Shown in pieces: positions 2,115 through 2,459 of a stretch of DNA of 5,668 nt. The notes beneath the pieces were generated by a model that saw only the letters and a program-made list of their open reading frames with translations, ran no database searches and was not told the origin of the DNA. Position numbers and translations under genes: made by a program. The stretch is from a virus. Taxonomy: Duplodnaviria > Heunggongvirae > Uroviricota > Caudoviricetes. Positions within the stretch are counted from its first letter, which is position 1; each line of letters starts with the position of its first letter. The stretch lies in IMG/VR virus record IMGVR_UViG_2917855067_000002; one strand, given 5' to 3'.

Positions 2115-2459
2115 ATGTCAGATTTGGCTATGAAGATTTTGAAATGGCAAACGACTGGCGATGTCGGCATCAGTAGCGCAACTCTTGCCTCAATCGCATG
2201 TGGACTGAAAAAGAATATCTATGGTCATCACTTCGGTGCTCCACATGACGCAGCCGATTTCCGACGATGCGTTGCACTTGTTGAGCAGATTCCAGAAATC
2301 AGAGATTCATTCGACAAGGTTGCAAAGCGCGTTCCGGCATTCAAAGGCATCCTCAACGAATGGGATTCTCTCGTTGCTCTGTTGAAGTCTGAAATGAAGA
2401 TACACGGAAACAAAGCACCAGAAACTTACAGAAGAATTAGCGAGCTACGCAAGTACTAA
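2115..2459 (+). CDS. Hypothetical protein, about 114 aa (MSDLAMKILKWQTTGDVG...), prophage accessory gene immediately upstream of xis; the six-frame ORF begins at 2088, but 2115 is the more likely start
   Basis: GGAGA at 2104..2108 is followed by a 6-nt spacer and ATG at 2115. The ATG at 2088 lies inside the upstream terminator hairpin. No family is recognised, though a C...HH...H...C spacing could bind metal. Confidence 0.65.
   Translation: MSDLAMKILKWQTTGDVGISSATLASIACGLKKNIYGHHFGAPHDAADFRRCVALVEQIPEIRDSFDKVAKRVPAFKGILNEWDSLVALLKSEMKIHGNKAPETYRRISELRKY

Follow-up and report, generated by a model that had tools for sequence, protein, structure and literature searches.

The 5,668-nt stretch of viral DNA analysed here (IMG/VR record IMGVR_UViG_2917855067_000002, Caudoviricetes; referred to as the window) contains a 114-aa open reading frame (ORF) directly upstream of a lambda-type xis gene and between two terminator-like hairpins. 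The locus raises the questions of whether this ORF is a genuine gene, whether it is already known and what its product may do. In the initial annotation, made from the sequence alone, no family was recognised. Database comparisons identified the ORF as a copy, functional as judged from its sequence, of the gene named ORF114 in phage 434 and HK022_32 in phage HK022. The description as unrecognised therefore held for the function, for which the only match was to phrog_1229 (‘unknown function’), and not for the gene, which is annotated in both of these phages. The coordinates of all features are collected in Table 1.

The window protein was 98.2% identical to its counterparts in HK022 and mEp043, 95.6% identical to 434 ORF114 (in HK022 and 434 over 99% of the length) and 92% identical to gp20 of Salmonella phage g341c, and identities of 95−98% were found across 434, HK022, mEp043/213 and Shiga toxin (Stx) phages. 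At the DNA level, megablast showed the window from position 2050 onward to be 95−97% identical to HK022, 434, Gally, Huey, mEp043/213 and many Stx phages. The names under which the gene is recorded include ORF114 (GenBank M60848; CPT_434_33), HK022_32 or HK022p30 (‘N15 early protein homolog’) and g341c gp20. Similar DNA (at least 80% identity) was present in 1058 of 5426 complete E. coli genomes, at up to four places per genome, and at least 80% of the cassette described below was present in 913 of them; among the matches listed, the label over the gene was ‘hypothetical protein’. The gene itself is thus already known, and the window holds one more copy. No relevant literature was found on ORF114, phrog_1229 or ‘N15 early protein’, and ORF114 is not mentioned in the sections, or under the terms, examined in a review of the exo-xis region (PMC8614690).

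The match to phrog_1229 had an E-value of 2e-51 and aligned residues 1−113 with profile positions 1−112 of 116. When a database of 1.84 billion cluster representatives (clusters at 50% identity) was searched with a profile, 2770 representatives were retrieved at E≤1e-3, 515 of them at E≤1e-10. Full-length homologues, down to 30% identity, occurred in hundreds of phages; by tblastn they extended to phages of Vibrio, Yersinia (PY54), Enterobacter, Providencia and Arthrobacter, and a relative was also found beside an integrase in a Burkholderia genome. ORF114 gave no significant match in Pfam, NCBIfam or PADLOC (DUF5798, at E 0.29, was noise), and a Pfam scan of 81 diverse members returned no family. 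In the alignment of these 81 members, P43, D45, D48, R51 and C52 were 100% invariant, while W11, G18, S20, S21, L55, P60 and W83 were conserved in at least 97%; all twelve are present in the window protein. The family consensus reads W-x3-G-x2-G-x-S-S-x-T-M ... P-x-D-P-x-D-F-x-R-C-x2-L ... P-E-x-R ... W-D-x-L, with the invariant motif P-x-D-x-x-D-x-x-R-C at the start of the third predicted helix.

With the homologues in hand, the start codon could be assigned. The open frame (2088..2459) would encode 123 aa, and an internal ATG at 2115 gives the 114-aa product that the initial annotation had preferred, noting a good Shine-Dalgarno sequence. The GGAG at 2104−2107 lies 7 nt before this ATG. The 345-nt version, with the start equivalent to 2115, is the annotated gene in the 434 and HK022 records, and homologues from Cronobacter, Citrobacter and Salmonella phages start with MSDLAMK. 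In 434, the T-run of the upstream hairpin is 2 T longer, which places the ATG equivalent to 2088 out of frame. Because of this frame shift, the two annotations and the starts of the homologues, the start was assigned to 2115, and that at 2088, which overlaps the upstream hairpin (in its loop and 3′ arm), was rejected.

The ratio of non-synonymous to synonymous substitution rates (dN/dS) was 0.09−0.19 relative to 434 and HK022 (Nei−Gojobori estimates of 0.13 and 0.09, respectively), and ORF114 is under purifying selection. The shortness of the ORF and the lack of a match to a characterised family would suit a frame that is open by chance, in DNA that merely separates two terminators and codes for nothing. 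This is hardly credible in view of the low dN/dS, the full-length homologues and thousands of cluster representatives, the confident AlphaFold2 model described below and the conserved Shine-Dalgarno sequence. Furthermore, no Rfam family matched the window, so no non-coding RNA was assigned to the region. The conservation in many phages excludes the spacer that the initial annotation had named as the alternative to a coding gene. Together, the homologues, the dN/dS values and the catalogued 434 and HK022 entries indicate that ORF114 is a genuine, selected and already catalogued protein-coding gene.

AlphaFold2, supplied with the 81-sequence alignment, produced a model with a predicted local distance difference test score (pLDDT) of 96 and a predicted template-modelling score (pTM) of 0.89. 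Seven helices were present in all five models (residues 3−14, 19−28, 46−58, 60−72, 74−81, 83−97 and 102−112), and the family is accordingly predicted to form a compact, globular seven-helix domain of approximately 110 aa. Three matches at E≤0.001 were obtained in BFVD, to unnamed or uncharacterised phage proteins of 30−46% identity, which we take to be ORF114 family members. Sequence-profile searches of the PDB gave coiled-coil noise only (CHMP3, E 0.05; MARVEL, E 0.15), and a fold search with the AlphaFold model gave no significant PDB match. The profile and structure searches that the initial annotation had proposed therefore revealed a large family, with neither a characterised family nor a PDB neighbour, and by the searches run the predicted fold is without a characterised relative.

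In the model, the conserved acidic residues D45, D48, E61 and D84 are located at predicted helix N-termini, and C52 is on the same face of helix 3 as the hydrophobic residues F49, L55 and V56. Part or much of the motif may consequently be structural. The window protein has an isoelectric point of 9.4 and ends in Tyr, as compared with Asp in 434 and HK022. The family median isoelectric point is 5.9 and its median net charge −2; the former argues against general nucleic-acid binding. A possible metal site of the form C-x7-HH-x4-H-x7-C had also been pointed out in the initial annotation. The residues are present, with the spacing C29-x8-HH-x4-H-x7-C52, but the site was rejected: position 29 is Cys in 13% of members and Leu in 34%, position 44 is His in 29% and Tyr in 24%, H38 and H39 belong to a loop that aligns poorly and contains gaps, and only C52 is invariant.

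The surroundings of the gene were compared in a junction alignment of lambda (L099 1365−1470, minus strand), HK022, 434 and both window flanks. In lambda, the hairpin GCCGCCTGATGGCGG-T6 is found at the end of orf55, with CTTGCGTGTAATTGC (the cII box of the promoter pI) immediately behind it and xis next. In the window, 434 and HK022, the hairpin-T6 (window 2080−2100) is followed by ATTGGAGACAAGAA-ATG and ORF114; after the gene come a 54-nt stretch, HSLTLDEACSFLKISRPT (2461−2514), the hairpin GCCGCATCAATGCGGC-T5 (2518−2538) and only then CTTGCGTGTAATTGC. Put as a test of contiguity, lambda reads hairpin-T6-CTTGCGTG (pI box) and the window reads hairpin-T6-(438 bp)-CTTGCGTG. The alignment thus places a cassette of approximately 438 bp exactly at t′I, between orf55 and pI-xis, relative to lambda, which is without ORF114. 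The initial annotation had likened the position of the gene to that of lambda ea8.5. This likeness did not survive the comparison, as orf55 (lambdap35) adjoins xis in lambda, with ea8.5 beyond it, and ORF114 is an insertion after the end of orf55, between the t′I hairpin and pI-xis. The accompanying remark that the sequence differs from Ea8.5 was borne out: BLASTP gave no alignment to Ea8.5 at E≤100 and the PDB profile search returned no Ea8.5 homologue, and a relationship to Ea8.5 was rejected.

The cassette contains the Shine-Dalgarno sequence, ORF114, the 54-nt stretch and the second, t′I-like hairpin, and its base composition was not different from that of xis and int. The 54-nt stretch matches the start of xis in Salmonella phage SPN9CC, a gene of P22 type, at approximately 95% nucleotide identity; a further hairpin, at 2465−2483, lies within it and has no T-run. 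In SPN9CC the gene order is eaa, an ORF114 homologue (117 aa, 63% identity), P22-type xis and int. In another prophage (L104), ORF114 is accompanied by a decayed copy of the same xis start (11707−11760), before a different integrase module. Based on the lambda/HK022/434 alignment, the SPN9CC order and the L104 remnant, the cassette is assigned to an ‘ORF114 – P22-type xis’ arrangement, with one joint in the terminator hairpin and the other inside xis. By the same comparisons, the P22-type xis remnant marks a mosaic junction. Upstream of ORF114, homology of the window to 434, HK022 and lambda begins at 2050, with the break exactly at the stop codon (2048−2050) of the preceding 104-aa gene.

The hairpins on either side of ORF114 were then considered with respect to its expression. 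A terminator scan of positions 1400−2900 found six terminator-like sites, as compared with 1.5±1.2 in shuffled sequences, and the two best were 2078−2097 and 2518−2533, each with a T-run. Fold energies were −13.4 kcal/mol (z approximately −2.9) for the upstream hairpin and −10.5 kcal/mol (z approximately −2.6) for the downstream hairpin against shuffled controls. The sequence of the upstream hairpin is identical to that of the lambda hairpin directly before the pI cII box, at the t′I position. The downstream hairpin, which resembles it, corresponds to the terminator t′I in two 434 records, where the annotated pI cII site comes directly after. A rho-independent terminator is annotated upstream of the g341c homologue too. 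The bracketing of the ORF by two terminator-like hairpins, the second abutting the pI cII box, was therefore corroborated as the initial annotation had described it.

No sigma-70-like promoter was found between 1600 and 2900, and hence none between the hairpins, by a consensus scan, which is a weak test. It can reasonably be inferred that expression of ORF114 would depend on read-through of the pL transcript. The gene has a terminator-like hairpin just upstream and no detectable promoter. Translation of ORF114, the last exo-xis gene, is therefore probably from the distal, antiterminated part of the early leftward (pL) transcript. Expression would fall early after induction or infection and would not come from pI, because pI starts downstream of the gene. 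The exo-xis review likewise describes early transcription of the exo-xis genes from pL (PMC8614690).

Taken as a whole, the best explanation, held here with middling confidence, is that ORF114 is a cassette gene that is read from pL and encodes a dispensable, stand-alone binding module. As to the role, a non-essential binding module produced from the late part of the antiterminated pL transcript is put forward, with low confidence. Most likely ORF114 would act alone; a metalloprotein or a classical DNA-binding repressor is less likely. It would bind a conserved component of DNA transactions (recombination, replication or nuclease control) that belongs to the host or to the phage. Binding was favoured because there is no fixed partner gene, yet exonuclease, SSB, HNH, RusA and PNKP neighbours, often translationally coupled, recur in unrelated phages. 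The gene is probably dispensable, since it is absent from lambda and often truncated or fused in prophage remnants. The best reading places ORF114 in the set of early accessory genes found with the recombination and replication genes of phages.

Neighbours were surveyed at 80 IMG/VR loci, which formed 52 groups at 80% identity, and by BLASTP no neighbour family was present in more than three of the 52 groups. Pfam families within two genes on either side were those expected of early DNA-metabolism and accessory regions and included SSB, RecT, YqaJ, RNase_T, three kinds of DNA methylase, HU, Ead/Ea22, DUF551 and ASCH. Among loci inspected individually, a DUF3799-type recombination exonuclease gene was directly upstream, with overlapping stop and start codons, in Bas82 and L010, and one gene further upstream in L107. 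In PY54, a DUF3799-type exonuclease was encoded four genes upstream and a different annotated exonuclease directly downstream. At one locus, an RNase_T exonuclease gene upstream and an SSB gene downstream both overlapped the homologue, and HNH endonuclease, RusA resolvase and PNKP genes were adjacent in single loci. In some of the inspected loci the gene directly downstream encoded SSB, PNKP or AAA_23. Homologues were also close to xis/int modules, among them those of the lambda, P22 and HK620 types, and the early regions that hold them also contain abc2, ral, lar and methylase genes.

When 50 long members were scanned with Pfam and PHROGs, the fusion partners proved heterogeneous and mostly unannotated. 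In single cases, an ORF114 domain was C-terminal to a (CCA-adding) tRNA nucleotidyltransferase with an HD domain, or followed a possible MazG-type N-terminus that was recognised by eye. Zinc-ribbon N-termini were seen on some members, one of them with a faint Lar-type Pfam match; none of the nucleotidyltransferase, MazG-type and zinc-ribbon fusions was used as functional evidence. The other architectures were a tandem ORF114 duplication and a subfamily of approximately 200 aa with an unannotated N-terminal domain, the latter type lying between the DUF3799 exonuclease and an AAA_23 ATPase in L010 and L107. Examples of the architectures are proteins P0192, P0068, P0276, P0244 and P0260-like. In E. 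coli, parts of ORF114 were joined to Ea22, Kil, ERF or Eaa/DUF550 (P0015, P0017, P0032, P0038, P0052 and P0064), in one case with the junction at a shared G-I-S-[SD] stretch. Judged from their sequences, the E. coli ‘fusions’ are recombination or deletion chimeras of degraded prophages, with frequent deletion or illegitimate recombination within the gene.

Several observations weigh against a dispensable binding module read from pL. No annotated homologue or experiment backs any function. The invariance of D45, D48, R51 and C52 across phyla exceeds what is usual for structural residues and fits a catalytic or ligand site, and the burial of C52 and the capping roles are predictions from helical periodicity. 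The genes around it are of a kind generally seen in early phage regions, so that the neighbourhood may mark no more than a place in which accessory genes collect; moreover, the homologue of a Vibrio phage is on the opposite strand inside the tail module. In the window itself, an IS3-family element breaks the operon approximately 1.8 kb upstream of ORF114, and the terminator-carrying 214-aa gene also lies upstream. On account of these two features, pL-driven expression of ORF114 at this locus is doubtful.

The invariant residues could instead belong to a small enzyme of new fold, with D45, D48, R51 and C52, and perhaps E61, D84 and E93, forming an active or ligand site at which nucleotides, nucleic-acid ends or signalling molecules would be acted on. 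In addition to the five residues without variation in 81 diverse members, further acidic residues are conserved in more than 75%, the hosts range from Proteobacteria to Actinobacteria, which suggests a universal substrate, and the rare fusions as well as the PNKP and exonuclease neighbours would suit such a role. We nevertheless regard an enzyme as unlikely: no likeness to enzyme families was found by Pfam (0 of 81 members), PDB profile or fold search, four of the five conserved acidic residues occupy helix N-termini in the classic capping position, C52 shares its face with hydrophobic residues, a 110-aa helical bundle without an evident pocket is small for an enzyme, and the fusions are single cases among the 2770 representatives. 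A related proposal is that the phrog_1229 domain is an unrecognised fold in which D-x-x-D-x-x-R-C is a true active or ligand site, serving early DNA transactions or counter-immunity in many phyla. This is rather doubtful; if true, the family could, for example, represent a small Cys/Asp-dependent enzyme or a sponge for a universal nucleotide or nucleic-acid substrate.

The variable accessory early regions in which members are found beside abc2, ral, lar and methylase genes would also be a natural place for an inhibitor dedicated to counter-defence or host takeover, which would bind a single immunity or nuclease system of the host and block it, by a logic like that of Gam, Abc2, Ral and Lar. 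The small single-domain protein, the Lar-like or other zinc-ribbon N-termini of some members and the moron-like location of one member within a tail module are in keeping with this. Strain-specific defence inhibitors are, however, usually narrow and fast-evolving, whereas this family is widespread with a rigid motif, and no experiment ties it to any defence system, so that the proposal seems rather improbable. Less probable again is a helix-turn-helix (HTH) regulator, formed by helix 1, a turn and helix 2, that tunes int/xis or the lysis-lysogeny decision. The stretch W-x3-G-x2-G-[IV]-S-S-x-T-M-A does resemble an HTH turn and recognition helix, the window protein is basic, the gene is found beside xis/int modules of several types, and other exo-xis genes affect lysogenisation according to the review (PMC8614690). 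The putative recognition helix is, however, rich in Ala, Ser and Ile and has no basic residues; the family as a whole is acidic; homologues occur in phages with no integrase nearby; and neither an HTH Pfam model among the 81 members nor a significant HTH fold match was found. The stand-alone binding module was therefore retained as the preferred reading.

Table 1. Features of the window in order of position
Feature	Position	Strand	Basis or remark
IS3-family transposase, 3′ end (rve_2/rve_3)	1−273		Pfam
holE/theta-like phage gene, truncated by the IS3-family end	275−421		DNA_pol3_theta, E 3.8e-22
214-aa gene with Invasin_D4 domain	755−1399		E 3.5e-8; own hairpin terminator at 1418−1456
104-aa gene, phrog_536 (‘transcriptional regulator’)	1736−2050		E 2.6e-45; directly upstream of the orf55 remnant
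Lambda-type orf55, 3′ remnant (last 39 nt; TGA 2086−2088 in hairpin loop)	2050..2088	+	megablast, alignments
Upstream terminator-like hairpin, GCCGCC-TGAT-GGCGG + T6	2080..2100	+	scan, fold, lambda alignment
Shine-Dalgarno sequence, GGAGA	2104..2108	+	sequence; coincides with the ribosome-binding site annotated in 434
ORF114 homologue, 114 aa, phrog_1229; predicted all-alpha; invariant P43/D45/D48/R51/C52	2115..2459	+	
Decayed 5′ end of P22-type xis (HSLTLDEACSFLKISRPT...), without ATG	2461..2514	+	translation; SPN9CC identity
Downstream hairpin, GCCGCA-TCAA-TGCGGC + T5	2518..2538	+	equivalent to 434-annotated t′I
cII box of pI, TTGC-N6-TTGC	2540..2553	+	identical to annotated 434 CII site
xis (lambda-type excisionase, 72 aa)	2566..2784	+	Pfam Exc, E 7.6e-41
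int (lambda-type integrase, 356 aa)	2762..3832	+	Pfam Phage_integrase, Arm-DNA-bind_1
att core, TTAGTATAAAAAAGC	3906..3920	.	read from sequence
ybhC (pectinesterase-like)	3968−5251		annotated under match in E. coli genomes

As a whole, the window corresponds to the int-proximal end of a lambdoid prophage integrated at the lambda attachment (att) site. An exact-match scan located its sequence in Escherichia sp. E1V33 (contig NZ_RHJI01000006.1). Downstream of int, the lambda att core, TTAGTATAAAAAAGC, is fused to bacterial DNA (AGGCTTCA...) beside ybhC, which makes it the hybrid att site that bounds the integrated prophage at its int end. At the other end (window 1−424), the 3′ end of an IS3-family transposase gene adjoins and truncates the holE/theta-like gene; the early-left operon of the prophage is therefore interrupted by an insertion sequence (IS). 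Downstream of ybhC, REP-like palindromic repeats were present at approximately 5260−5390 (within 5255−5668), followed from 5441 onward by the start of an IS3-family orfA (HTH_Tnp_1). With the transposase end at 1−273, IS elements thus flank the locus on both sides.

The 214-aa Invasin_D4 gene is surrounded by a perfect 34-nt inverted repeat (497−530 and 1485−1518) with imperfect extensions (473−1575). The region that holds it (280−1620) had a single match, of 53 nt at 1566−1618, in the 5426 complete E. coli genomes. DNA matching 1571−1735 is annotated in E. coli genomes under S24 peptidase/HumD (UmuD-like) and DUF2513, which suggests a remnant of, or a joint with, the umuD-like moron of related prophages. 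The 104-aa phrog_536 gene occupies the place of orf55 of 434, HK022 and lambda. Its product has a C-terminal Cys cluster (CGKCG...CPC...C) and a weak NCBIfam match to ‘LexA regulated protein’ at E 0.007, below the cut-off. This protein was also considered as a homologue of Ea8.5 and rejected, with no PDB sequence match and no BLASTP similarity.

The window adds nothing new on the gene, as annotation of the ORF dates back to the sequencing of the 434 int-xis region, and about one-fifth of complete E. coli genomes contain similar DNA. The size of the gap is of more interest: approximately 2770 clusters at 50% identity, spread over several phyla, with a confidently predicted fold and an invariant polar/Cys motif, have no Pfam model. 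The carriers include classical, genetically tractable phages (434, HK022, P22-like and N15-like), which makes the family a cheap target for studies of exo-xis ‘dark matter’. The cassette also illustrates cleanly how mosaic joints fall at regulatory hairpins, and it includes a fossil P22-type xis.

Among known systems, the closest are 434 ORF114, HK022_32 and g341c gp20, which are the same gene (114 aa, 92−98% aa identity). In 434 and HK022, the Shine-Dalgarno sequence is the same as in the window, as is the position between the hairpin at the orf55 end and t′I/pI/xis. The window differs from both in the 104-aa phrog_536 gene upstream, in the reduction of orf55 to its last 39 nt and in the interruption of the operon by an IS. 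In P22-like phages, the adjoining gene encodes Eaa, a DUF550/MazG-like dATP/dGTP pyrophosphohydrolase, and chimeras join the two. ORF114 is not itself of this type, since neither the window protein nor any of the 81 members matched PF04447 or MazG, the family conservation table contains no EExxE motif, and PF04447 was found only in the chimeric proteins.

The exo-xis genes orf55, ea8.5, ea22 and orf60a/61/63/73 are likewise small, non-essential, transcribed early from pL and located between exo and xis. The fold of Ea8.5 is a homeodomain/zinc-finger hybrid. ORF114 is predicted to be all-alpha with seven helices, whereas a small alpha/beta fold is predicted for Orf55 in the exo-xis review, which also describes the xis-proximal part of the region as variable between phages (PMC8614690).

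In its anatomy, the cassette may also be compared with the morons. Morons, as known from HK97 and HK022, are additional gene cassettes that separate genes which lie side by side in related phages. Like a moron, the ORF114 cassette is placed between elements that are contiguous in lambda, the t′I hairpin and the pI box, and it has its own terminator-like hairpin (2518−2533) and T-run, annotated as a terminator in 434 and of predicted activity. Unlike a moron, it had no detectable promoter of its own in the weak consensus scan (1600−2900), and its base composition was that of xis and int. Its boundaries look as if recombination had joined two related terminator hairpins and had also occurred inside a P22-type xis.

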